This document shows, in pieces, positions 3,160-63,653 of a DNA stretch of 64,000 nt. Made by a program: the position numbers and the translations under genes. This DNA comes from a virus. Lineage: Duplodnaviria; Heunggongvirae; Uroviricota; Caudoviricetes. The notes below the pieces were generated by a model. That model was not told the origin of the DNA. It worked only from the letters and a program-made list of their open reading frames with translations, and did not search any database. The stretch lies in the IMG/VR virus record IMGVR_UViG_2740892442_000004. One strand, written 5' to 3'. How positions within the stretch are numbered: the stretch's first letter is position 1; each line of letters opens with the position of its first letter.

Positions 3160-4341
3160 ATGAGCCTTTATGTTATATCAACATTTAGGTTGGTCACAAT
3201 ATTGCCTGTTAAAAGTGGAATTATCGTGAGCGAGCTGAAAGAGCTAATTACCGAATTAGATTTTGAACAATGGTTGGATACTGAAGGTATCGTTTATCGA
3301 CGTGGAAGCGTGAGTGCTCGCGGTCGTGAAGTGAATATCAAGGAGTGTCCGGTATGCGGCAGCTCCAACTGGAAGGTATATTTCAATCTGACCAGCGGCG
3401 TAGGCAAATGCTTCGCTGGTGATCATCCCGAAGAGATTCAGTTCAATAAGCTGGTTTTCCTCAAGCACTACAGCGGCAAATCACGACGACAGTTCGAGGA
3501 ATATGTGCAGAACGCTCTTCTTTCGCAGGGGTGGGCACCAAAGAAAGAAGAAATAGTGCTTGCAAGCACAGTCGAGTTAGAGGGGCCACTTGCACTCCCT
3601 CGTCATTACGAACTTCCTATAGATGGCCGTCTTCCAGACTATCTGGTTGAACGAAACATATCGCCTGAAATGGCAAAGTATTTTGACCTACGATACTGCG
3701 TCGAAGGTAAGCACGCCTATGTAGATCCGTATACAGATCAGGTTAAAGGACAGATATTCGATATGCGAATACTGATACCGGTTTACGATCTGGATGGGGT
3801 AATGAAGACATTTCAGGGACGAGACATTACCGGTACAGCAGAACGCCGCTACCTCTTCCCTATGCAGCTGCCGGCGTCGGGTAAGTTTCTCTACAACGGC
3901 CACAACGCAGTCGGGAAACAAACAGTCGTTGTGTGTGAAGGGGCATTTGACGTAATGGGCGTGAAGCGAGCCATCTTCGACGAAAAGACGCTGAGGGATT
4001 ATGTAGAGCCAATTGGCACGTTCGGGATGCACTTGTCCGGAAATATGAATGAGGACGCTGAAGATCAGTTGGGCGCGTTCCTGACGCTCAAGGCGCGTGG
4101 ATTACGCAACGTCATCATGATGTGGGATAGCGAGAAGCAAGCGATCCGCAACACCATGTCGGCGGCCAAACGCCTCACCAGCATCGGACTAAATGTCAAA
4201 GTGGCCTGTCTGGGCGAAGAAGGTCTCGACCCCGGCGACGCGACGCCAGAGCAGATCCTCAAAGCCTATTATCGTGCCAAGCCTTACTCCAAACAGCTGG
4301 AGTTAAAATGCAAAGTGCTCGGTATCAAGTCACTCGTGTAG
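3160..4341 (+). CDS. DNA primase (zinc ribbon + TOPRIM)
   Basis: CPVCGSS...CFAGDH zinc-binding motif and VVVCEGAFDVMG TOPRIM-like motif; start set at ATG after conserved AAAGAAAAACACATG leader (ORF opens at 3088). Confidence 0.65.
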   Translation: MSLYVISTFRLVTILPVKSGIIVSELKELITELDFEQWLDTEGIVYRRGSVSARGREVNIKECPVCGSSNWKVYFNLTSGVGKCFAGDHPEEIQFNKLVFLKHYSGKSRRQFEEYVQNALLSQGWAPKKEEIVLASTVELEGPLALPRHYELPIDGRLPDYLVERNISPEMAKYFDLRYCVEGKHAYVDPYTDQVKGQIFDMRILIPVYDLDGVMKTFQGRDITGTAERRYLFPMQLPASGKFLYNGHNAVGKQTVVVCEGAFDVMGVKRAIFDEKTLRDYVEPIGTFGMHLSGNMNEDAEDQLGAFLTLKARGLRNVIMMWDSEKQAIRNTMSAAKRLTSIGLNVKVACLGEEGLDPGDATPEQILKAYYRAKPYSKQLELKCKVLGIKSLV

Positions 4342-8276: not shown

Positions 8277-8488
8277 TCGTATTAAGTAAACGGGAGAAGG
8301 AAACGCTTCATGAAATCAGTAAGTGGCCGGAGTTCCCTGAGTACTGGAAGCCTAAAACGCGAGCTAAGTTAGAGCGTTTAGGGTTGGTTGCAAACGTTTC
8401 TGAAACGTGGTGTTCGGCCAACTACCAGTTAACTGATAAAGGGAAAGTATTGCTACAGCAATTAGTAGAATCAGGAGCGTTAAAATGA
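8273..8488 (+). CDS. hypothetical small protein
   Basis: 71 aa ORF with ATGA overlap to ligase stop. Confidence 0.4.
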   Translation: MIVLSKREKETLHEISKWPEFPEYWKPKTRAKLERLGLVANVSETWCSANYQLTDKGKVLLQQLVESGALK

Positions 8489-8637
8489 TTCCATACATCT
8501 CATTAGCTTTTATGGGTGGCTTCCTTATCGGCTTCGGCATCTGTCGTGATTTAATTAAGCAGGAACTTAAAACCAAAACACTGTGCATCGGAAAGCGTGT
8601 GTATCGGGTAGTTCATGAAACAAAGGTTAGAAAATGA
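8485..8637 (+). CDS. small membrane protein (50 aa)
   Basis: AGGAG Shine-Dalgarno before ATG; hydrophobic MIPYISLAFMGGFLIGFGI; overlaps neighbours by ATGA. Confidence 0.35.
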   Translation: MIPYISLAFMGGFLIGFGICRDLIKQELKTKTLCIGKRVYRVVHETKVRK

Positions 8638-8924: not shown

Positions 8925-9702
8925 AAACATCACGATAAGTATTTACTTACTTATCTTTTATGTATAAGATGACTTTGTTTTCGTTGAGACGCGACTGTTT
9001 GAACTTAAATACAAGTGCAAACGAAGAAGTCTATCTGGCAGTAGCCTAATAAGCCAAACACCAGCGAGGTCAGTTTCCAGCCTCGTTACCGAAATGGGAC
9101 ACACTGAGCGAGTGTGATTGCAGAACGCAGGAGGGAACATGAGTGTTCCCTCCGATGAAGTAACAGAATGGGCGGTTGGTATATTTTCAACTCCATATGA
9201 CTCCCGGATTCTTAGCCACTGACCGCCCATCCTGTTACGTCATTTTGTTCAATTATGTCGTTTATACTGGGTTAAAAAGCGGCGACGTAGCCCGGCTGGT
9301 ATGGTTAGCCAGCACACAACGTTGAGGCCATTACATTTTTATCAATTCTAAGGTTCTATTCACAGAGATACCGGCGAGCGTTGATATGTAACATGTTGGG
9401 CAAACATTCAATCGGAGTAGTGGCCTCAACGTTGTGAAGACGGGATTGTTGTGTAGGTTTAACCACTGTTGCCATTGGTGCCTGTTTTCACAACAAATGA
9501 TTCCATACATCACATTGTATAAATTACAAAGTAGGTGCTGTCCTCAGAAACATCATCTACTTAAAGATTTTGCCTTCTACTATTGAGCGAAGTCGAAAGC
9601 GTCTGGCACTAACGAAAAGTGCAAGTAGCGGTGCGTTTCCTGGCAGAAACTAAACCGTCGCGATTGGCACTGTTGAGTAATAAATACTGGCAGTGCTGAA
9701 TT

Positions 9703-9777
9703 GATGGTGTAGCTCAGCGGTAGAGCAGTTGGCTGTTAACCAACTGGTCGGTGGTTCGAATCCACCCACCATCGCCA
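9703..9777 (+). tRNA. tRNA-Asn (anticodon GTT)
   Basis: Cloverleaf: acceptor gatggtg/caccatc, D-arm tagctcagcggtagagc, anticodon loop ctGTTaa, T-loop ggttcgaatcc, CCA end. Confidence 0.75.
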
Positions 9778-9782
9778 ATTTA

Positions 9783-9869
9783 GGGGAGTTAGTCCGTAGA
9801 GGTAGCGGTGTAGACTGTAAATCTACTGTCATGGCGACTCGGGTGGTTCGACTCCATCACTCCCCACCA
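9783..9869 (+). tRNA. tRNA-Tyr (anticodon GTA), long variable arm
   Basis: Acceptor ggggagt/actcccc, anticodon stem-loop gtagaCTGTAAAtctac, T-loop ggttcgactcc, CCA end. Confidence 0.65.
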
Positions 9870-9873
9870 AATT

Positions 9874-9949
9874 GCCGGTTTAGCTCAGTTGGTAGAGCAG
9901 TCGCTTTGTAAGCGAATGGCCAGCGGTTCAAGTCCGTTAACCGGCACCA
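9874..9949 (+). tRNA. tRNA-Thr (anticodon TGT)
   Basis: Acceptor gccggtt/aaccggc, D-arm tagctcagttggtagagc, anticodon loop ttTGTaa, T-loop ggttcaagtcc, CCA end. Confidence 0.65.
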
Positions 9950-10269: not shown

Positions 10270-10356
10270 GGAGAGTAGGGAGCATGGTGCTCAAGCGGTC
10301 TTGAAAACCGTCCCATTGTGCAAACGATGATGGTTCGATTCCATTACTCTCCGCCA
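10270..10356 (+). tRNA. tRNA-Ser (anticodon TGA), long variable arm
   Basis: Acceptor ggagagt/actctcc, anticodon stem-loop gcggtCTTGAAAaccgt as in enterobacterial tRNA-Ser(UGA), T-loop ggttcgattcc, CCA end. Confidence 0.7.
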
Positions 10357-10514
10357 GACACAGCGTTGAGCGGTTTGGCCTTTTAATCAACTCGATTAAG
10401 ACTCCGCTAACATAAACCAGACCGCTCAACGCTGTGATAGATAATTACGGCAGACGTTCTTAACCATAGCTTGCTAACATCCTAGCAACACTTTTTTTCA
10501 GCGCAAAATTCAAA

Positions 10515-10534
10515 GGGGCTTCGGCCCCTTTTTT
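10515..10534. terminator. Rho-independent terminator between convergent transcripts
   Basis: ggggcttcggcccc followed by tttttt. Confidence 0.65.
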
Positions 10535-10549
10535 GTTGAACAGTGCAAT

Positions 10550-11812
10550 TTACTTTGCATAGTCGCCCAATTTTAATATTTCGCGCTTATATTCATTAAC
10601 CATGCTACTGGATTCAGTATAAATTCGATTTAAAAGATTATCGTTATCTTTATTCTCATTTATCTTAATGAGTGATAATTTATATTCATAGTCATCAAAT
10701 GCCACAATCAAATGGTGGCCTGGGATTATATCTTCGTCACTCTTGAAGTATATATCTTCAAGTATGTAATCTAGTTGATTAGATTTTCTTTTCTCGATGT
10801 AATCTTCAGCCATAGCTATTACATCATTCCTGTCATTTAACCTGTTTTTTTCGGAAGGCACATCTTCGTAATGTTGCACGATTGAACAACCAATAAGGCG
10901 TGGGATGTAAACGTCAAAATGAGTAACTCTATCATTCGCGGTTTTAAGTAGTTCCTCAAAGTAGTTTCTTACATGTAAAGGCAACTTCTCAAAGTAATCA
11001 TTAATTATAGGAGAACAAGGAGTTTTATAATTCATAAGAACCGACGGTACGAGCTTTGGGTCTCGAAACATCCAGTCCCTTTTAACGTCCGATGGAACAT
11101 AATAACTTTTAATGATATTATCAAAATAATTTATCATTCGAGATTTGAATATTTTGTTGAATCTAAGGTTTATGAATGCATCCAGATAAGGCATATCTGA
11201 ATAAGCATCATCAAAAAATATTTCATCATTGAAAAAATCATATTTATTTAATAAACAACACAGTTTTCCCGAATTAATATGTTCACAATAATCGATCTTT
11301 AATCCAAAGATAGCAATGATCAACTTCATCTGAGGTGGGATTTTGAAAATTAATTGTGACACATACGCTCTTTTTTCCTTTAGACATTCCCCATCAATAT
11401 AAAATGAACTATCCACATACTCAAAAATATTAATAATATGCTTCACATACTGTATTACCTCATGCTGTTTTACCAATGGGTAATATAGTCTATTTAACTC
11501 ATCGCTGTTTAAATTAATTTTGCGTTTATCGATAATTTGTTTTGCAAGAAGACATAGCTCATCATGTTGATTTAATAAGGAATCAAACCATTGTTTAAAT
11601 GCACTCTTTCGCATTTCGAACAATGATTCTGTTGTTAATTGAAGGGCTGAAAAAGCTGCTTTTGCACTTTTTCTCGCTTCGTAGGCATTCCATGCTGTTG
11701 CTATAAAAGCAAATGCTGTAGCCAATGTTCCAACAATTTGACCATTTAAAACAACCCAATCCCAAAAAATCACGGTGAGCAGTAGTATAATAATGAAAAT
11801 TAAAAAAGGCAT
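10550..11812 (-). CDS. hypothetical membrane protein, strongly AT-rich
   Basis: 420 aa; two predicted N-terminal TM helices; GC visibly far below flanks; opposite strand to neighbours. Confidence 0.55.
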   Translation of the reverse strand: MPFLIFIIILLLTVIFWDWVVLNGQIVGTLATAFAFIATAWNAYEARKSAKAAFSALQLTTESLFEMRKSAFKQWFDSLLNQHDELCLLAKQIIDKRKINLNSDELNRLYYPLVKQHEVIQYVKHIINIFEYVDSSFYIDGECLKEKRAYVSQLIFKIPPQMKLIIAIFGLKIDYCEHINSGKLCCLLNKYDFFNDEIFFDDAYSDMPYLDAFINLRFNKIFKSRMINYFDNIIKSYYVPSDVKRDWMFRDPKLVPSVLMNYKTPCSPIINDYFEKLPLHVRNYFEELLKTANDRVTHFDVYIPRLIGCSIVQHYEDVPSEKNRLNDRNDVIAMAEDYIEKRKSNQLDYILEDIYFKSDEDIIPGHHLIVAFDDYEYKLSLIKINENKDNDNLLNRIYTESSSMVNEYKREILKLGDYAK

Positions 11813-11986
11813 GTATGTATTTCACTCTACTAACTATAAAATATTAGGGTAATGTTAACCAAACAATGCCTTAATTAATAGATTGATCGAGGCTTTAATA
11901 GCTTTATAATGCAGACTGCAAAGATAAGTATGGACATACCTATCTTCTTTGTGAGTAAAGTTGCATATCAATTCTATGAGGTAACA

Positions 11987-12232
11987 ATGACGATCACTAT
12001 CTACGGACGAGATAACTGCTCATACTGCAAACGTGCGGTCGAGCTGGCGAAGCAACTAAAGGGACATGGCTACGGTGATTATGAGTACATCGACATCACC
12101 ACTGCCGGTATCGACAAGGAAAAACTAAGTGAAATTGTTGGTAAACCGGTAGAGACTATCCCCCAGGTGCTGATCGATGGCCAGCCGATTGGCGGATACA
12201 CAGAACTGGCTGCATACGTCAGCACCCTCTGA
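11987..12232 (+). CDS. glutaredoxin (NrdC-like)
   Basis: CSYC active-site motif in an 81 aa thioredoxin-fold protein; GAGGTAA Shine-Dalgarno; ORF opens at 11909. Confidence 0.7.
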   Translation: MTITIYGRDNCSYCKRAVELAKQLKGHGYGDYEYIDITTAGIDKEKLSEIVGKPVETIPQVLIDGQPIGGYTELAAYVSTL

Positions 12233-12238
12233 TTTTAA

Positions 12239-12259
12239 CGGCTCACAGGAGCCGTTTTT
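12239..12259 (+). terminator. Rho-independent terminator
   Basis: cggctcacaggagccg followed by ttttt. Confidence 0.6.
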
Positions 12260-12442
12260 ATTCCCACCAAACTCACTCCCATTTCCCTTAAAATTCAAAA
12301 AACAACGTCAAAATGATTCCATACCTACTATGTATGGAATCATTGCTGAAAATGAGTTACTTTTACTCTTGATCCTATAAGAATCTATGCCTAATATACT
12401 GTTTACTTATACAGTACATCGGCGTAACTCGGTGATTGTCAT

Positions 12443-13545
12443 ATGAAAAATAGCTTTGACAGAGCACGCGCTGCGGAGAACACCTCAAAAGAGGCGATAG
12501 AGTATCTCGAAAGAGCATCTCAAATGCAGGCCGTTATGATCTCGCAGGTTAGCAATGACATGAGATTCTCGGACGCATTCATGTTATTCACTCGCTTATC
12601 TCTGCTGATAACCAGACGTCGGCCAGAGATCGCTGTTCATTGTATTTTGATACATGTTTTGCCGCACATTGCCGATGTAAAAGTAAGTGACATTAATAGG
12701 TTCATGGTGAACCAACTGGTCAACCCACTAATACTGGATGGCAAAATTGTTATGGGCCGCCGCGTTTTCTCTCTGATGAAGCAGTTCCTTAGCTGGTGCG
12801 CCTTCCAGGGGATGATAGACGTGTCACCGTTAAACGATATGTCACTTAACAAAGTTGCCGGTGGCGCAAAGCCCACACCTCGCGAGCGGAAGCTGACCGA
12901 CGCAGAGGTATGGGTGTTCTGGAATATATGGGACTACTTCAATGTGTGTGCTGGTACAAAATGGGCGGCCAGGCTATGTCTTGTATCCGCAAGACGACCT
13001 GACGAAGTACTGCGGGCTAAAAAAAGTGAGTTCAATCTTAAGCGTGGGGTTTGGAATCAAGGCAAGAGGAACAAATCTGCCCGTGAGCATTCTCTGCCTT
13101 TAAGCTCATTAATGCGCACTTGTATTGAAGAGTTGTTCGAATATGGTAAAGACAGCCAGTGGCTCGTGCCTTCGAATAAAAAAATCGGGAAAGACCTTCC
13201 TATGTCTAAAGTGGCAATAGCCAGGCATTACGTCGTATTCTGGAACGACCAGAACTGATGGAGCTTGAGCCATTTACACCCCGAGATTTGCGCCGTACTG
13301 CGCGTAGTTACTTCCCAGCATTAGGCATAAGCCAGGAGGTATCACGTAAAATCATGAACCACAGTCTTGAGGGGATAGATCGGGTCTACGACCGGCACGA
13401 TTATATGGACGAGATGCGAGACGCCTTAGAAAGTTTCTCGACGTACATCGCATCAATCGTAGAGCAACCGGATTTAGACGAAATTGACCACAAATTTAAG
13501 GGAGATCGTCTATCAACAGAGCTTATTCGTGTAAATTTTTCATAG
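12443..13545 (+). CDS. tyrosine recombinase/integrase, apparently frameshifted near 13258 (possible pseudogene or indel error)
   Basis: Upstream ORF has LVSARRPDE box I-like Arg; downstream ORF has TPRDLRRTARSYF and MNHSLEGIDRVYDRHDY catalytic motifs; the two ORFs abut in different frames. Confidence 0.5.
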
Positions 13546-13926
13546 AGACTTTATGGCCTCAACAACCTTTTGTGATGCGCCTTTCTCTTTACCGAATCGC
13601 TCGTTATATGCAGCAAGAACCTGTTTTTCGTCCTCGTTAAGAGGAGCAGTGCCTTCTTTGTATAAAAATGCTGCGAGTTCGGGTTGGCGTTCTTCCAGCA
13701 CCATCATCATAAGACGACTTGGCTCAATACCCAGTGCCAGCGCCAGCGGACGAACCTTATCGATAGGCAAAGGAATTTTGCCGCTTTTAATTAAAGAAAG
13801 GTTGTTGGCGTTTTTATACCCAATTGTTTTGGCTATCTGGGCCTGGCTCATAGGTGAGGATTCAATCAACCCTGCGATAAAAGCAGCGTAGCGACTTTCT
13901 ATAAATTCAATCTTGTTATCAGACAT
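13540..13926 (-). CDS. HTH (XRE-family) transcriptional regulator
   Basis: Helix-turn-helix segment SQAQIAKTIGYKNANNLSLIKSGK, 128 aa. Confidence 0.55.
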   Translation of the reverse strand: MSDNKIEFIESRYAAFIAGLIESSPMSQAQIAKTIGYKNANNLSLIKSGKIPLPIDKVRPLALALGIEPSRLMMMVLEERQPELAAFLYKEGTAPLNEDEKQVLAAYNERFGKEKGASQKVVEAIKSL

Positions 13927-14177
13927 GGTTACAACCTTTGCGCGTTCAATTCTCTCTGGTAAGTGCTTACCGATATTACATCAAAGGTTAGGGTTGTAAA
14001 GCTATTATCATTTTTTTCGATAGGCACTTAAAAGACCGGTTAAAGGCCATTGCACGGAGAAAAATTAGCCCAAAATAGGTAAGAAAATCAACTTGCATAT
14101 GATATGAATGTATTCAGTATTGATACAAATTTTAGTAGTATTCCTTACCATAGTATAAGTTAGAATGGATTGATTGA

Positions 14178-14390
14178 ATGAACACCACTATTTCCAGCCT
14201 AATCGCTCTTGAGATCGGACACGTACAGAAATTAGCTGATGAGTGTGTAGCTGACATCCTCACCGATCTACCGAATGAGCAGATTCAGGTTGGTGTGAAT
14301 GACACAACTGGATTTATATTCGAACTTAACAACAAACGCTTCACGCTTCTCAATACCGGCTCCGGGTCTTTAGCCGTCAGAATCTGTTAA
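14178..14390 (+). CDS. hypothetical small protein, divergent from HTH regulator
   Basis: 70 aa ORF. Confidence 0.4.
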   Translation: MNTTISSLIALEIGHVQKLADECVADILTDLPNEQIQVGVNDTTGFIFELNNKRFTLLNTGSGSLAVRIC

Positions 14391-18108: not shown

Positions 18109-21100
18109 ATGAAGGCACTGATGGTTCGAACTGACTTCTCACTTGGGGAGTCGGCTCTAAAAGCAGAAAACGCGGTGAAGATTGCCAGAGAAGCTGGCTA
18201 CACCGCTGTAATTTCAGCAGATAGCATGAATATTGCGAGCGTTATTCCACTACAACGTGCCGCTGGTGACGACATGGCGGTTATTTGTGGTGTGAAACTA
18301 AACATTGTTGATGATCCCACATACGAGCACCGGGCTAAACTTGCTAAAGAATCTATGAGATGTATGGAATCATTAGAGCGGGGACGTAACTACTCGTTTA
18401 CCGCTCTAATTAAAAATGAGCAAGGATATCGCGACATCTGCGAACTAATGACGGCGGCCAACACACGAGAACAGTTCTACTTTGTACCGCGTCTCTCGCT
18501 CGAACAGTTGGTTTCTACATATGCCAAAGGCAACATCATCCTGCTTACTTCCGACATCGGTAGCGTGTTCCAACGCAACGATTTTGCAAAAATCATAAGC
18601 ACACTGATTACAGCGGGTGGAAAAGACAACTTCTATAGTGTGGTTTATCCGCACCCTACTCCATTCTACGACCAGATTAACGTCCGGGCGATGAAAGTCG
18701 CCAGCGCATTGAAAATAGAGCCAGTGGCGTTCTATCCCGCTTATTACGAATCGATCGACGATGCAGACATTAAAGACATTGCGCACATGGTTACGAACAA
18801 CATCAAAATCGACCAGCCGCATCGTCTGCGTATCCCCCACCAGCGAGATAACGCCGTCAATGGTCGCCGCCATCTCCTTGAGGCGCTTAAAGCCTTCTCC
18901 GTTCGCATGGATGTGCCGGTAACAGCTGCAATGGCCTCAACAACGCAGGATACCATTATCGATGCCTGCACATGGCGCTGGCATGAATTGCCGCCAGCAC
19001 TGCCAAAGATGGCAGACGACGAGCCTGCAACGCTTATGAAACTGGCTGTTGCAGGGCTGCGTAAACGTCTTACCACAAAAGAGTTTGGCTACACACCACC
19101 TGCTTCTGAGAACAGGGTTTATGTTGAGCGGCTAAAGTACGAAATGGACACGCTGACTCGCCTGGGATTTTGTGGTTACTTCCTGATGGTACGCGATCTG
19201 ATGAATCATAGTCGTGAAACTGGCATTCCCGTTGGGCCTGGTCGTGGTTCCTCTGCCGGTTCTCTGGTGGCGTGGTGCATAGGCATAACCAACGTCGACC
19301 CAATCCGTCACGGTCTTCTGTTTGAGCGTTTCATCAACCCTGAGCGTCTCGACTTGCCGGATGCGGACTTGGACTTCAGCCAGGCACGTCGCCATGAGGT
19401 GATCGAGTATCTGAATGAACGCTACGGCGAAGATTACGTTGCGGGTATTCCGAACTTCACCTACCTGGGCGCAGCCTCTGCACTACGTGATACCGCTCGT
19501 ATTTATGGTGTGGAGTCCGCAGATATGGCGGTATCAAAAGAACTGAAGAACGTCGAGGATGATAGCCTTCCATTGGAAGAGCTGCGCGAACAACTGGCAA
19601 GTCTCGACAAATACGCAACAAAATATCCTGATGCATTCAATGCAGCCTGCAAGTTACAAAGCCTTATGCGTGGCTTTGGTAGACATGCGGCAGGGATGAT
19701 CGTAGCAGGTGTTCCTCTGACAGAACGTACACCGGTTGAGCGCCGTGGTGACGCGCGTTGTATCGCATTTGACAAGCGTTACTGCGAGGCTATGGGCCTA
19801 ATTAAGCTGGACGTGCTTGGCCTGGCAACTCTCGATTTGCTCGATAGTGCAAAACTCTACATAAAAGAGAACACAGGTGAAGATATCAATCTTGATGCCA
19901 TTTCTCTTGAAGATCGCAAGGTGCTGGATGGTTTTGCTGCTGGGTACAGTCAAGGTGTTTTCCAGCTTGAATCAGGCCCAATGCGCAAGCTGCTTAAAGA
20001 TTTAGGTGGTGGAATTGAGCCAATGAGCTTTAAAACGGTCGTCGCTACAACTGCGCTCTTCCGGCCGGGGCCAATTCAATCAGGCATGTTGGATGACTAT
20101 GTTTCTGTCGCCAAAGGCTTTATGACGCCGGAATCATTACACCCCGTTCTTGATGAACTTACCGCGGAAACAAATGGCGTGATTCTCTATCAGGAACAGA
20201 CGATGAACGCGACTCGATTGCTTGCCGGCTTCACAATGGCTGAAGCTGACGCTGTGCGTTCCGCAATCGGTAAGAAGAACATGGAAAAAATGAAGAGCAT
20301 GGGCGAGAAGTTCATCGTTCAGGCTCAAGCTGGCTGGATAGACGTTGAGCTGGAAGATGGCACTACACAGCGCATTCACCGTGCGGAACATTTTAAATGC
20401 GAAGACGGAACTCTGAAAACTGTCGAAGAGGCACTTGAGCACGGCGCAAAACTACCTATAAACGCAGTACGCGTTACAGCGTCACATCCAGGGCTATCAG
20501 AGATGAAAGCGAAGGAGATCTGGACCGCATTTGAGAAAAACGGAGCCTATCAGTTCAATAAATCACACTCCGTTGCTTATTCTTTAATCAGTTATCAGTC
20601 TATGTGGCTAAAGACGCACTACCCTGCTGAGTTCTTCGCAGCTGCGCTCACCATTCTGGGCGAGGATAAGCATCAGGGGCTGGTGAAGGATGCGCTGACC
20701 TATGGCATTCGCGTATTGCCACCAGACGTTAATGTGTCATCTAACCGAATTGAGATCCGCACACTCGAAGACGGCAGTCAGGCACTGTATGCGCCATTCT
20801 CTGCTGTGAAAGGCTGTTCTGAAAATGGTTGTCAGGCAATTATGCGTGCGCGTGAGAAAGTTGGTGGCAAATTCGAGTCAGTGGCACAATTCGATGAAGC
20901 GGTCGAGAAGCGTGCATGTAACAGTCGTGTACGCGAGTCGCTTCATAAAGTAGGGGCTTTTGCGTCAATTGAGCCAGGCAGTCTGCCAGCAACTGATCCT
21001 GAACGACTGCGCGACCAGGCTGAGCTGATGGGCAATCTCATCATTGACGCTGTTAAAGCATCACGTCCGTTCGAAATGAATCCTAAGCGTTCTGCCGAAA

Positions 21101-59934: not shown

Positions 59935-60324
59935 ATGGGCTTCCCTTCTCCTGCGGCGGATTATGCTGAGAGCCGTATTTCTCTTGATCAGCAGATAATT
60001 AGACATCCTTCAGCGACCTACTTCATGAGGGCAGCTGATAGTCATCATCGTGAGGGAATATTACAGGGTGCATTGCTGGTGGTCGATTCCTCACTTACCC
60101 CGGTTGATGGTTCTCTGCTTGTATGCGCTCTGGATGGGGAATATCGCGTAAAAAGATACCGGAAGTATCCACGTCAGCATCTGGAGGATTTAAGAACCGG
60201 TAAGAAGGAAGCATTGCCAAAGGATGACGATGGATGCACGGGCAGCAATGCCGTGTTTGGTGTGATCACTCACATTATCAACGACGCAAGAAGTGGCGAG
60301 TTTGATGATTGTCCCGTGATGTAG
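59935..60324 (+). CDS. UmuD'-like S24 peptidase-fold protein (resembles phage P1 HumD-type UmuD' analogue)
   Basis: Begins MGFPSPAADY, i.e. at the position of the UmuD Cys24-Gly25 cleavage site; Ser (ADSHH) and Lys (RVKRY) dyad positions retained; no umuC-like gene follows. Confidence 0.65.
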   Translation: MGFPSPAADYAESRISLDQQIIRHPSATYFMRAADSHHREGILQGALLVVDSSLTPVDGSLLVCALDGEYRVKRYRKYPRQHLEDLRTGKKEALPKDDDGCTGSNAVFGVITHIINDARSGEFDDCPVM

Positions 60325-60361: not shown

Positions 60362-61462
60362 TCACACTGCGCGGAATGCGATTTCGCCAGGTATTACTTC
60401 ACCTTGCCAATACATTTGGGCAGCAACGCGATCTGCGAGGTCACGATAAATAGCCGTAAATTCGCTATCTGGACGACTAATAACGGTTGGTGTTCCGTTA
60501 TCCAGATCTTCACGAAGAGAGATATGAAGTGGCATTTGGCCTAACAACTGCGTGTTGTATTTCTCGGCCAGTTTCTGTGCGCCACCGGTGCCAAAAATTG
60601 GCTCGTGATGACCGCAGTTACTGCAAATATGCACACTCATGTTTTCGACGATACCCAGTACCGGCACTTCGACTTTTTCGAACATCACAATGCCTTTCTT
60701 CGCATCGATCAGCGCGATGTCTTGCGGCGTAGTTACCACAACCGCACCAGTTACAGGAATGTTCTGCGCCAGCGTCAACTGAATATCACCAGTGCCCGGC
60801 GGCATATCGAGAACGAGATAGTCCAGATCAGGCCATAGAGTTTCCTGCAACATCTGCATCAGCGCCTTGCTGGCCATCGGTCCACGCCACACCATTGCAT
60901 TGTCGTCGGTGACCAGATAACCAATAGAGTTGGTTGCCAGGCCATGAGACATGATAGGTGCCATGTGAGTACCGTCAGGTGAGGTTGGACGTTGGTTTTC
61001 CGCGCCCAGCATGGTTGGAATTGATGGACCATAGATATCGGCATCCAAAATACCAACTTTCGCACCTTCAGCAGCCAACGCCAGTGCCAGGTTTACCGCC
61101 GTGGAGGATTTACCCACGCCGCCCTTGCCTGAGCTGACGGCGATAATGTTCTTAACGCCATTAATGCCTGGTTGGTTTTTGACGCGCTTAAGCGTGGCAA
61201 TGTTGTACGACAGCTTCCAGTCAATAGCCTTTGCGCCAGTGATACGGAGCAGATCACCACTACATTGCTCTTTCAGGTCTTCAAAAGGCTTATTCCACAC
61301 GAAAGGCATGATTAGTTCGACATGCAGTGTGTCATCCATCAACGCAACATGGTGTAACGCTTTAAGCGTAGTCAGGTTGTGTTTCAGGGTTGGGTGCTGA
61401 AAATTAGCCAGCGTACCGGCTACCATTGCTCTCAGGGCATCCGGCGATTTGGACTCGCTCAT
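60362..61462 (-). CDS. apbC: Fe-S cluster carrier ATPase ApbC/Mrp
   Basis: 366 aa; essentially collinear with E. coli Mrp as recalled; P-loop SSGKGGVGKSS; CxxC-containing ICSNCGHHEP. Confidence 0.9.
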   Translation of the reverse strand: MSESKSPDALRAMVAGTLANFQHPTLKHNLTTLKALHHVALMDDTLHVELIMPFVWNKPFEDLKEQCSGDLLRITGAKAIDWKLSYNIATLKRVKNQPGINGVKNIIAVSSGKGGVGKSSTAVNLALALAAEGAKVGILDADIYGPSIPTMLGAENQRPTSPDGTHMAPIMSHGLATNSIGYLVTDDNAMVWRGPMASKALMQMLQETLWPDLDYLVLDMPPGTGDIQLTLAQNIPVTGAVVVTTPQDIALIDAKKGIVMFEKVEVPVLGIVENMSVHICSNCGHHEPIFGTGGAQKLAEKYNTQLLGQMPLHISLREDLDNGTPTVISRPDSEFTAIYRDLADRVAAQMYWQGEVIPGEIAFRAV

Positions 61463-61619: not shown

Positions 61620-63653
61620 ATGACCCAAGTCGCGAAGAAAATTCTGGTGACGTGCGCGCTGCCGTACGCTAACGGCTCAATCCACCTCGGCCATATGCTG
61701 GAGCACATCCAGGCTGATGTCTGGGTTCGTTACCAGCGAATGCGCGGCCACGAGGTTAATTTCATCTGTGCCGACGATGCCCACGGTACGCCGATCATGC
61801 TGAAAGCACAGCAGCTTGGTATCACACCGGAGCAGATGATTGGCGAAATGAGTCAGGAACACCAGACTGATTTCGCAGGCTTTAACATCAGCTATGACAA
61901 CTATCACTCGACGCACAGCGAAGAGAACCGTCAGTTGTCTGAGCTTATCTATACTCGCCTGAAAGAGAACGGTTTTATTAAAAACCGCACTATCTCTCAG
62001 TTGTACGACCCGGAAAAAGGCATGTTCCTGCCGGATCGTTTTGTAAAAGGCACCTGCCCGAAATGTAAAGCGCCAGATCAATACGGCGATAACTGTGAAG
62101 TCTGCGGCGCAACATATAGCCCGACTGAATTGATCGAGCCGAAATCGGTGGTTTCTGGCGCTACCCCGGTAATGCGTGATTCCGAACACTTCTTCTTTGA
62201 TCTGCCTTCTTTCAGCGAAATGTTGCAGGCATGGACCCGCAGCGGCGCGTTGCAGGAGCAGGTGGCGAACAAAATGCAGGAATGGTTTGAATCCGGCCTG
62301 CAACAGTGGGATATCTCCCGAGATGCGCCTTACTTCGGTTTTGAAATTCCGAACGCGCCGGGCAAATATTTCTACGTCTGGCTGGACGCGCCGATTGGCT
62401 ACATGGGTTCCTTCAAGAATCTGTGCGACAAGCGCGGCGATACCACCAGCTTCGATGAATACTGGAAGAAAGACTCCACCGCCGAGCTGTACCACTTCAT
62501 CGGTAAAGATATTGTTTACTTCCACAGCCTGTTCTGGCCTGCCATGCTGGAAGGCAGCAACTTCCGCAAGCCGACCAACCTGTTTGTTCACGGCTATGTG
62601 ACGGTGAACGGCGCGAAGATGTCCAAGTCTCGCGGCACCTTTATTAAAGCCAGCACCTGGCTGAATCATTTTGACGCCGACAGCCTGCGTTACTACTACA
62701 CTGCGAAACTCTCTTCGCGCATTGATGATATCGATCTCAACCTGGAGAATTTCGTTCAGCGCGTGAATGCCGATATCGTGAACAAAGTGGTTAACCTGGC
62801 CTCCCGTAATGCAGGCTTTATCAACAAGCGTTTTGACGGCGTGCTGGCAAGCGAACTGGCTGACCCGCAACTGTACAAAACCTTTACTGATGCCGCTGAA
62901 GTGATTGGCGAAGCATGGGAAAGCCGCGAATTTGGTAAAGCTATCCGTGAAATCATGGCATTGGCTGACCTGGCTAACCGCTATGTCGATGAACAGGCTC
63001 CGTGGGTGGTGGCGAAGCAGGAAGGACGCGATGCCGATCTGCAGGCGATTTGCTCTATGGGCATTAACCTGTTCCGCGTGCTGATGACGTACCTGAAGCC
63101 GGTACTGCCGAAACTGACTGAACGTGCAGAAGCATTCCTGAATACAGAACTGACCTGGGATGGTATCCAGCAACCGCTGCTGGGCCATAAAGTGAATCCG
63201 TTCAAGGCACTGTATAACCGCATCGATATGAAGCAGGTTGAAGCACTGGTGGAAGCATCCAAAGAAGAAGTGAAAGCCACAGCCGCACCGGTAACTGGCC
63301 CACTGGCTGACGACCCGATTCAGGAAACTATCACCTTTGACGACTTCGCCAAAGTTGACCTGCGCGTGGCGCTGATTGAAAACGCAGAGTTTGTAGAAGG
63401 TTCTGACAAACTGCTTCGCCTGACGCTGGATCTCGGTGGTGAAAAGCGTAATGTCTTCTCAGGCATCCGTTCCGCTTATCCAGATCCACAGGCACTGATT
63501 GGTCGTCACACCATTATGGTGGCTAACCTGGCACCACGTAAAATGCGCTTCGGTATCTCTGAAGGCATGGTGATGGCTGCTGGCCCCGGCGGGAAAGATA
63601 TCTTCCTGTTAAGCCCGGATGCTGGTGCTAAACCTGGCCACCAGGTTAAGTAA
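61620..63653 (+). CDS. metG: Methionyl-tRNA synthetase
   Basis: 677 aa from [26 protein letters not shown] (HIGH) with KMSKS; near-identical to E. coli MetG as recalled; track ORF opens upstream at 61491 with non-native extension. Confidence 0.92.

Follow-up and report, generated by a model that had tools for sequence, protein, structure and literature searches.

We analyzed a 64-kb stretch of DNA (the window) from an Escherichia coli phage-plasmid of the SSU5/pHCM2 type (~110 kb class). The region of interest, at 10550-14390, contains a minus-strand gene for a 420-amino-acid membrane protein, a glutaredoxin gene, a tyrosine recombinase (integrase) gene whose frame is broken, a gene for a helix-turn-helix (HTH) regulator, and a small open reading frame (ORF) of 70 amino acids. 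The window was assigned by its nucleotide matches, which are to the Escherichia phages Cyrano, CMS-2020a, and PhiR41_1 and to many E. coli plasmids. Plasmid pMB3825A_2 (NZ_CP103696.1) is 99.96% identical to the window over 14 kb, with four substitutions and one gap. A 60-nucleotide probe from the integrase gene was found in 213 of 5426 complete E. coli genomes, on a plasmid every time and never on the chromosome.

To describe the region, we compared it with the same region from at least 15 related elements and mapped the breakpoints of homology. The region at 10550-14390 is not a single island but a mosaic, in which one exchangeable cassette is set into a conserved backbone. From 12312 rightwards, a palindrome, the integrase, the HTH gene, the 70-amino-acid ORF, and the genes for CobT, CobS, and DnaE follow each other in the same order in every relative examined. 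The G+C content of the integrase, HTH, and 70-amino-acid genes (0.44-0.47) is at the level of the backbone. The original prediction for this DNA had described all of 10550-14390 as an accessory island and a hot spot for cargo insertion. Both descriptions hold for 10538-11986, where the junctions are fixed and the content differs between relatives, but not for the remainder: the integrase, the HTH gene, the 70-amino-acid ORF, and the palindrome that had been noted belong to the backbone in every relative.

The replaceable cassette at 10538-11986, which we call slot A, is AT-rich (G+C content 0.32) and has no homology to relatives with other cargo. It consists of one minus-strand gene and a divergent promoter/operator region. 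In 11 loci with other cargo, homology to the window ends at 10532-10537, which is the end of an intrinsic terminator, and it returns at 11976-11987, which is the start codon of the glutaredoxin gene (grx). The terminator (10512-10537), found by a terminator scan and by its sequence, is thus the left junction of the slot. Its G+C-rich hairpin at 10512-10531, AAAGGGGC-TTCG-GCCCCTTT, has an A-rich run on the 5' side and a run of T on the 3' side that extends to about 10537. The terminator lies 13 nucleotides past the 3' end of the minus-strand gene, so it is able to serve both strands; the bidirectional terminator beside the tRNA cluster and the opposite-strand ORF after it are just as the original prediction had placed them.

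Among otherwise collinear relatives, slot A has at least seven alternative contents, and a second slot on the other side of grx (slot B) has at least four, with junctions that agree within a few bases. The occupants of slot A include a plus-strand gene of the Gp49 family that is coupled to grx (in Cyrano and in loci L007, L008, and L011), a minus-strand gene of 302 amino acids (L009, L010, and L015), a gene of 298 amino acids (L014), a gene of 529 amino acids (L012), and PhoH together with other genes (L006 and L013). All four of the minus-strand occupants are AT-rich (G+C content 0.29-0.375). In PhiR41_1, a much larger segment, which starts in the DNA-ligase region and reaches the palindrome at 12312, has given way to a fimbrial usher/chaperone operon and an AraC-type regulator. 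When we scanned the cargo proteins of the alternative contents with PADLOC and Pfam, the only ones recognized were YafO (from its RefSeq annotation) and the fimbrial usher and chaperone. In SSU5-type elements, insertions are reported to concentrate at one plastic locus near PhoH and DNA ligase (PMC9600943). This kind of slot is already known: it is the plastic locus of an SSU5-type phage-plasmid, an ordinary but informative site for defense-type cargo.

The sole gene of the cassette in the window lies between the terminator and the divergent promoter region (10550-11812, minus strand) and encodes the 420-amino-acid protein. Its G+C content is 0.318 (0.29 at third codon positions), as compared to a mean of 0.461 for the window, and no other stretch of 1263 nucleotides in the 64 kb is as low; this is about 4.5 standard deviations under the mean (standard deviation 0.032). 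The unusual composition noted by the original prediction is therefore real. Among the 213 E. coli plasmids of the family, 40 carry the gene (40 of the 5426 complete genomes). It is found only on plasmids, at 93-100% nucleotide identity, and it occupies slot A every time. The ratio of nonsynonymous to synonymous substitution rates (dN/dS) is 0.27-0.44, so the gene is truly coding and is under purifying, though relaxed, selection.

More distant versions of the gene are found in the equivalent slot of other elements. P0005 (53% identity to the 420-amino-acid protein), P0007 (31%), and P0015 (32%) are encoded on SSU5-type contigs of up to ~110 kb, and their genes keep this orientation, pointing away from grx or from PhoH-grx. 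P0009 (31% identity) stands alone among insertion sequence elements on an ordinary plasmid. Together, the alleles in the slot and the relatives that stand alone on other plasmids indicate that the family is borne by mobile elements, can occur as a gene by itself, and has long resided and diversified in the slot. That the gene was recently acquired, as had been suggested from its composition, is doubtful, since alleles with just 31-53% identity hold the same slot in other SSU5-type elements.

What kind of protein is it? The protein itself matches a single family in PHROGs, the unnamed phrog_18168, and a word-indexed search of 5.8 billion proteins yielded only 7 clusters. An exhaustive search of 1.8 billion representative proteins with a profile of the close family found 67. 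Among 52 aligned full-length relatives, 39 match the Pfam family putAbiC (PF16872, "putative phage abortive infection protein"), with a best E value of 1.4e-11, and P0009 attains that family's cut-off of 22 bits. Eight of the 52 match PADLOC's model for AbiC and five match its model for AbiP. In the reverse direction, a profile built from 36 distant relatives only gave 141.6 bits for the window's protein (E = 2e-39 for a search space of 1e6), across residues 1-413. The core of putAbiC maps to about residues 115-200, and H83, Y122, F193, and F194 are invariant in the family. These profile comparisons argue that the 420-amino-acid protein is homologous over its full length to putAbiC-domain proteins; we consider this solid, though transitive. 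Since the protein has no match in PADLOC while eight and five of the relatives do, we classify it as a divergent relative of the AbiC/AbiP group and not as AbiC proper. The suggestion in the original prediction of an abortive-infection or exclusion factor thus gains support from remote homology to putAbiC and the AbiC/AbiP group.

The architecture of the protein is also similar. Hydropathy, which peaks at residues 1-22 and 20-41, places two hydrophobic segments at the N terminus (residues ~2-22 and 24-41), and both are helical in the structure model, so the two predicted membrane helices are borne out. An AlphaFold2 model built from the alignment of 52 sequences is confident (predicted local distance difference test, pLDDT, of 90.5; predicted template modeling score, pTM, of 0.78). 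An earlier model from 7 sequences was poor (pLDDT 60). The model has helices at 2-22 and 24-96, followed by helical bundles; the second helix runs on as a ~70-residue helix, and there is a small alpha/beta region at ~300-420. AbiC has two N-terminal membrane helices and AbiP has one, followed in each case by an extramembrane helical domain (PMC13064643). Like those proteins, the window's protein would form a single-gene system on a mobile element, and it has an N-terminal anchor (of two helices, as in AbiC) and an all-helical extramembrane domain without a recognizable enzyme fold. It differs in being ~420 amino acids long, in coming from a phage-plasmid of Enterobacteria, in falling under every curated threshold, and in having the extra alpha/beta region at its C terminus; the likeness itself comes from sequence and from the model. 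Comparing the family profile to the sequences in PDB gave nothing useful.

The promoter region of the cassette, on the right-hand side of slot A, contains a putative promoter facing grx (TTGATC-16-TATAAT, 11883-11910, plus strand), which was found by a consensus scan and matches at 10 of 12 positions. Just downstream is a copy of a 24-bp palindrome that recurs around the genome (see below): AGATAAGTATGGACATACCTATCT at 11922-11945, which scores 24.5 bits with a position weight matrix (PWM). Of the five other minus-strand cassettes, four have an equivalent copy, and that of L014 is under the threshold of the scan. Because a palindrome sits just downstream of the promoter-like site, we suggest that the cassettes carry, or abut, a putative regulated promoter for grx.

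The grx gene (11987-12232, plus strand) is part of the backbone and lies between the membrane-protein gene and the integrase; the original prediction had overlooked it. It encodes a glutaredoxin of the GrxA family (106.7 bits for NCBIfam NF008401, above the cut-off of 84 bits, as well as a match to Pfam's Glutaredoxin), and it is present in all of the relatives examined except for PhiR41_1, in which this segment was replaced. A terminator scan identified an intrinsic terminator after it (12237-12264, plus strand). Slot B, at 12213-12311, is empty in the window. In other elements it contains a YafO-type toxin with a 202-amino-acid partner (L009, L010, and L017) or hypothetical genes, and in six loci its right junction is at 12310-12312. 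In Cyrano, slot B (L001, 3452-4006) contains CYRAN_43, a minus-strand gene for a protein of 184 amino acids. In lysogens of E. coli LF82, this cargo gene was the most highly expressed gene of Cyrano, at 723-fold above the prophage background (PMC9928086).

To the right of slot B is the integrase gene (12443-13545, plus strand), which is a core gene. As the original prediction had noticed, its frame is broken, and it is split into ORFs of 271 and 95 amino acids. Alignment to Cyrano and PhiR41_1 shows that the break is due to the deletion of one nucleotide (CCC to CC) after 13220. An intact orthologue of 367 amino acids matches Pfam PF00589 across residues 172-320, with 40.6 bits and a cut-off of 27.1 bits. 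The window's copy loses its frame after residue ~259, which parts the first portion of the catalytic domain (SARRPDE) from the RDLRRT and RVYDRHDY motifs. This copy, as sequenced, is unable to encode a complete enzyme, but the gene's family is certain. A comparison to PDB sequences found no relative of the integrase.

The original prediction had interpreted the broken gene as a remnant, and here we disagree. The deletion was present in none of 402 relatives (213 records from E. coli genomes and 189 plasmid records), all of which align at 60 of the 61 positions. The portion upstream of the break has a dN/dS of 0.02, which indicates strong purifying selection, and the persistent genes listed for the SSU5 supergroup include tyrosine recombinases (PMC7969092). 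The break may be a private, very recent mutation, or it may be a homopolymer sequencing error. We also noticed annotated frameshifts in CobT and dnaE of several deposited relatives (L011 and L013). Such single-base breaks in backbone genes are common in assemblies of this family, which fits with a sequencing error. We considered a programmed frameshift and ruled it out because none of the 402 relatives shares the deletion.

Another feature that had been overlooked lies 98 bp upstream of the integrase. This is a palindrome with two inverted arms of 13 bp around a spacer of 7 bp, AATGATTCCATAC-CTACTAT-GTATGGAATCATT, at 12312-12344. It is unique in the window, where no palindrome of this kind would be expected by chance. 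The arms are conserved in 16 relatives: the E. coli relatives all have the same arms, and the Klebsiella phage pJN2-26 agrees with them at 12 of 13 positions. There are four kinds of spacer, namely CTACTAT, its inverse ATAGTAG, TCTTTAG, and TTGGTAG. Nucleotide homology to the Klebsiella elements sets in precisely at 12313 and runs to the stop codon of the integrase, which suggests that the site and the integrase form a single module, like loxP and cre in phage P1.

The layout of the palindrome fits that of lox and FRT sites, which have inverted arms of 11-13 bp and a spacer of 6-8 bp and lie beside the recombinase gene. In loxP, the layout is 13-8-13. As in P1, the element is a plasmid prophage, it has a tyrosine recombinase, the perfect 13-bp inverted arms and the short asymmetric spacer are just upstream of the gene, and the site and gene are conserved together (in this case, across elements from E. 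coli and Klebsiella). Unlike in P1, the spacer has 7 bp and varies among lineages, in some cases by inversion, and the window has three extra isolated copies of an arm, 3-6 kb away; also, the comparison is to the layout and not to the sequence of Cre. By analogy, the palindrome and the tyrosine recombinase are probably a Cre/lox-like module for resolving multimers. Equally, the palindrome may be an operator, and we describe it as a candidate lox-like site or operator.

The three isolated copies match the arm AATGATTCCATAC exactly and extend to a 20-mer, AATGATTCCATACATCTCAT, with 0.42 copies expected by chance. They are at 8484-8503 (plus strand), at the start codon of a 50-amino-acid ORF; at 9496-9515 (plus strand), 207 bp upstream of the tRNA-Asn gene; and at 18355-18374 (minus strand), inside dnaE. 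All three are directed at the palindrome and are kept in relatives, and the remaining 50 kb of the plasmid contains none. We also considered whether cargo might be inserted by site-specific recombination at the palindrome. There is an indirect hint of this, in that the right junction of slot B's cargo falls at the edge of the palindrome in six loci. The idea was set aside because no second or degenerate copy of the site flanks any cargo, and in PhiR41_1, the left junction of the replaced segment is not at a copy of the motif.

The HTH gene (13540-13926, minus strand) converges on the integrase and overlaps its end by 6 nucleotides. It encodes a 128-amino-acid backbone protein that matches phrog_8 (E = 1.3e-11); its score for Pfam HTH_19, 19.7 bits, is under the cut-off of 30.2 bits, and no relative was found among PDB sequences. 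The orthologue in Cyrano, CYRAN_45, is annotated as a "putative repressor" and was expressed at 10-fold above the prophage background in lysogens (PMC9928086). Going by these similarities, the HTH protein is a probable lysogeny repressor of the phage-plasmid. Divergent from it is the 70-amino-acid ORF (14178-14390, plus strand), which is annotated in all of the relatives, matches phrog_2627 (E = 8.8e-41), and is the first gene of the rightward CobT-CobS-DnaE (replication) operon. This arrangement, including a palindrome in the promoter region between the two genes, agrees with the original prediction. That palindrome, with the core GGTAAGTGCTTACC at 13958-13971, is 32 bp upstream of the start of the HTH gene, and 15 relatives share it unchanged. 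As an inverted repeat, though, it has the layout 6-2-6 and is not a perfect 14-mer.

Nor is it a private operator for this pair of genes. Instead, it is a weak member (13953-13976; PWM score of 17.4 bits) of a family of 24-bp palindromes with the consensus TGATAGGTAAGTACTTACCTATCA, with about 30 copies between the genes of the whole genome. Scanning the window with the PWM gave 23 matches of at least 12 bits, versus 0.8 in shuffled sequences. The sites in the window begin at 920, 5514, 8933, 11922, 13953, 16613, 24022, 27541, 29166, 29493, 32875, 37559, 42270, 47107, 48147, 49323, and 54302, and those in locus L029 are at 3823, 8035, 14954, 21459, 25034, 28457, 33748, and 40803. Of the first 13 sites, 12 are outside of ORFs of at least 90 amino acids and just upstream of ORF starts. 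As an independent check, the other half of pMB3825A_2, which is 86% coding, has 9 sites, of which 7 are fully intergenic and another is nearly so. Klebsiella-type relatives have retained the motif, and an unrelated plasmid lacks it. The palindromes also occur in short gaps within the tail and capsid operon.

We considered that the 24-bp palindromes might form RNA hairpins and set this aside: the predicted energies are -4.5 to -7.3 kcal/mol, and it is the sequence that is conserved rather than the pairing. Such weak hairpins make a DNA site for a dimeric protein more likely. A global regulator of the phage-plasmid probably binds at this motif, and the HTH protein is the obvious candidate. Searching the literature for the sequence of the motif turned up nothing relevant. 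The scattered operators of P1's C1 repressor and the boxes of late-promoter activators are similar, in that a plasmid prophage repeats one conserved motif between its genes, and one of the copies precedes the putative repressor gene. The motif described here differs in being a 24-bp palindrome and in being present in short gaps of a structural-gene operon as well.

To the left of slot A is the tRNA cluster. ARAGORN identified tRNA-Asn, tRNA-Tyr, and tRNA-Thr at 9703-9949 and tRNA-Ser(UGA) at 10270-10356 (plus strand). The last of these is conserved in relatives and is the left anchor of the locus. In an Rfam scan of 8-19 kb, only the tRNAs were matched. The tRNA content differs among the relatives, with Asn-Tyr-Thr-Ser in the window, Asn-Thr-Ser in Cyrano and in pSCMY1, and Asn alone in p13P484A-3. 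Starting 3 nucleotides past tRNA-Ser is an inverted repeat (10359-10378 and 10417-10436) with arms of 20 bp that are 95% complementary and a loop of 38 nucleotides. In Cyrano, the equivalent region has an annotated minus-strand ORF, CYRAN_40, which was expressed at 15-fold above the prophage background in lysogens (PMC9928086).

At the far end of the window, 59935-63653 matches host-like genes carried on the phage-plasmid, which in pMB3825A_2 are annotated as a peptidase of the S24 family (59935-60324), an iron-sulfur carrier like ApbC (60362-61462, minus strand), and methionine-tRNA ligase (~61620-63653). The S24 peptidase could have some bearing on SOS induction.

Taking the locus as a whole, we favor, with moderate confidence, a swappable slot that holds a single-gene anti-phage factor of the AbiC/AbiP type and is surrounded by a conserved backbone. 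The 420-amino-acid protein is probably such a factor, made by the lysogen. We propose that the plasmid prophage would produce it during lysogeny from the gene's own leftward promoter. A basic stretch after the second helix (EARKSAKAA) would, by the positive-inside rule, put the large helical domain in the cytoplasm. The protein would sense, or interfere with, a step in the intracellular development of a competing phage; the infection would be aborted or curtailed, and the population of lysogens and the plasmid would be protected. Slot A is a long-standing docking site, in which divergent alleles and unrelated AT-rich genes are swapped by recombination in the conserved flanks. Much of this resembles the defense or moron hot spots of temperate phages and satellites (P2 and P4) and the plastic locus of SSU5, with fixed flanks, interchangeable AT-rich single genes on the opposite strand, and, in a close relative, strong expression of a neighboring cargo gene in lysogens. 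In contrast to the hot spots of the P2/P4 type, slot A is bounded on the left by a terminator and on the right by a promoter region with a genome-wide palindrome, and most of its occupants are not recognized by current catalogues of defense genes.

Several points count against this proposal. In direct searches, the 420-amino-acid protein reached no threshold in Pfam or NCBIfam and had no match in PADLOC at E ≤ 1. The link to AbiC is transitive, through relatives, and lactococcal AbiC and AbiP were likened to the protein via family models and descriptions. The candidate for the leftward promoter (TTGGTT-18-TATAGT) is weak and was identified by eye. That the gene is expressed during lysogeny is suggested by analogy to the neighboring cargo in Cyrano, and the anti-phage role of the enterobacterial clade is predicted. 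Finally, the mechanism of AbiC itself is unknown (PMC13064643).

So we also considered that the cargo might have a role other than defense, as a plasmid-addiction or toxin-like membrane protein, as an inhibitor of conjugative entry, or as a lysogenic-conversion factor that alters the physiology of the envelope. The protein has zero direct matches to defense models and no recognizable enzymatic or sensor domain; toxin-antitoxin genes are found in slot B and elsewhere on these plasmids, and the fimbrial operon of PhiR41_1 shows that cargo near this site is sometimes not defensive. Against this count the homology to putAbiC-domain proteins over the full length, the AbiC-like architecture of two membrane helices, and a cassette that has no partner antitoxin gene. 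Furthermore, allelic diversification in a fixed slot is the usual pattern for defense genes. We consider a role outside of defense to be unlikely. Another idea, which strikes us as quite improbable, is that the protein acts at the membrane in superinfection exclusion, blocking the entry of DNA from related phages (like Imm of T4 or SieA of P22) instead of aborting infections after entry. It does have an N-terminal membrane anchor, and its gene is variably present and runs opposite to the lytic genes of a temperate element. But most of the protein (about 375 of the 420 residues) is one large soluble domain, which would be cytoplasmic by the positive-inside rule; the periplasmic loop has just ~7 residues; and the members of the homologous AbiC/AbiP group that have been studied act after the entry of DNA.

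The picture implicit in the original prediction, of the whole region as a decaying integrative island beside tRNA genes, with a recombinase remnant, a regulator, and cargo, is refuted by the conservation data, and we give it almost no credence. It is true that tRNA genes adjoin the region, that the central domain of the integrase is of the P4 type, that its frame is broken, and that the cargo is AT-rich. But the integrase, the HTH gene, the 70-amino-acid ORF, and the palindromes are intact in every relative examined, and the deletion in the integrase is absent from the 213 and 189 records. The strength of selection on the integrase, the persistence of such recombinases in the SSU5 supergroup, and the G+C content of the genes, which matches the backbone, all argue against decay, as does the location of the E. 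coli copies (213 of 213 on plasmids and 0 on the chromosome).

Returning to the proposal of a slot for anti-phage genes, a stronger version is possible, though we hold it tentatively and would sooner doubt it than accept it. In this version, slot A is a docking site that is dedicated to defense genes and is wired into the regulation of the element, as each opposite-strand cassette ends in a promoter region with the 24-bp palindrome. The 420-amino-acid protein and its alleles of 31-53% identity would be a new enterobacterial clade of AbiC/AbiP-like anti-phage proteins with a membrane anchor that has been missed by current defense finders, and the occupants of 298, 302, and 529 amino acids would be further unrecognized defense genes. 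Going further, the 13-7-13 palindrome, the scattered 20-bp copies, and the integrase may take part in the exchange of modules.

Our finding is a divergent new gene of the AbiC/AbiP type in a kind of site that was already known. The locus is a compact test bed for this type of protein, with its single fixed slot, its numerous natural alleles, and a structure model of high confidence. The mechanism of AbiC/AbiP-type proteins has reportedly been unknown since 1992. The least expected features of the neighborhood are the two repeated DNA motifs, which point to a regulatory and recombination logic of this family of plasmid prophages that is still undescribed. About 4% of the complete E. coli genomes (213 of 5426) contain SSU5-type phage-plasmids, which are common in Shigella, Salmonella Typhi, and Klebsiella as well, and in a DefenseFinder survey of SSU5 elements, AbiC was not among the systems listed. 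If the 420-amino-acid protein and its slot-mates are anti-phage, then the phage susceptibility of clinical lineages would be shaped by plasmids in a way that present defense catalogues do not register.

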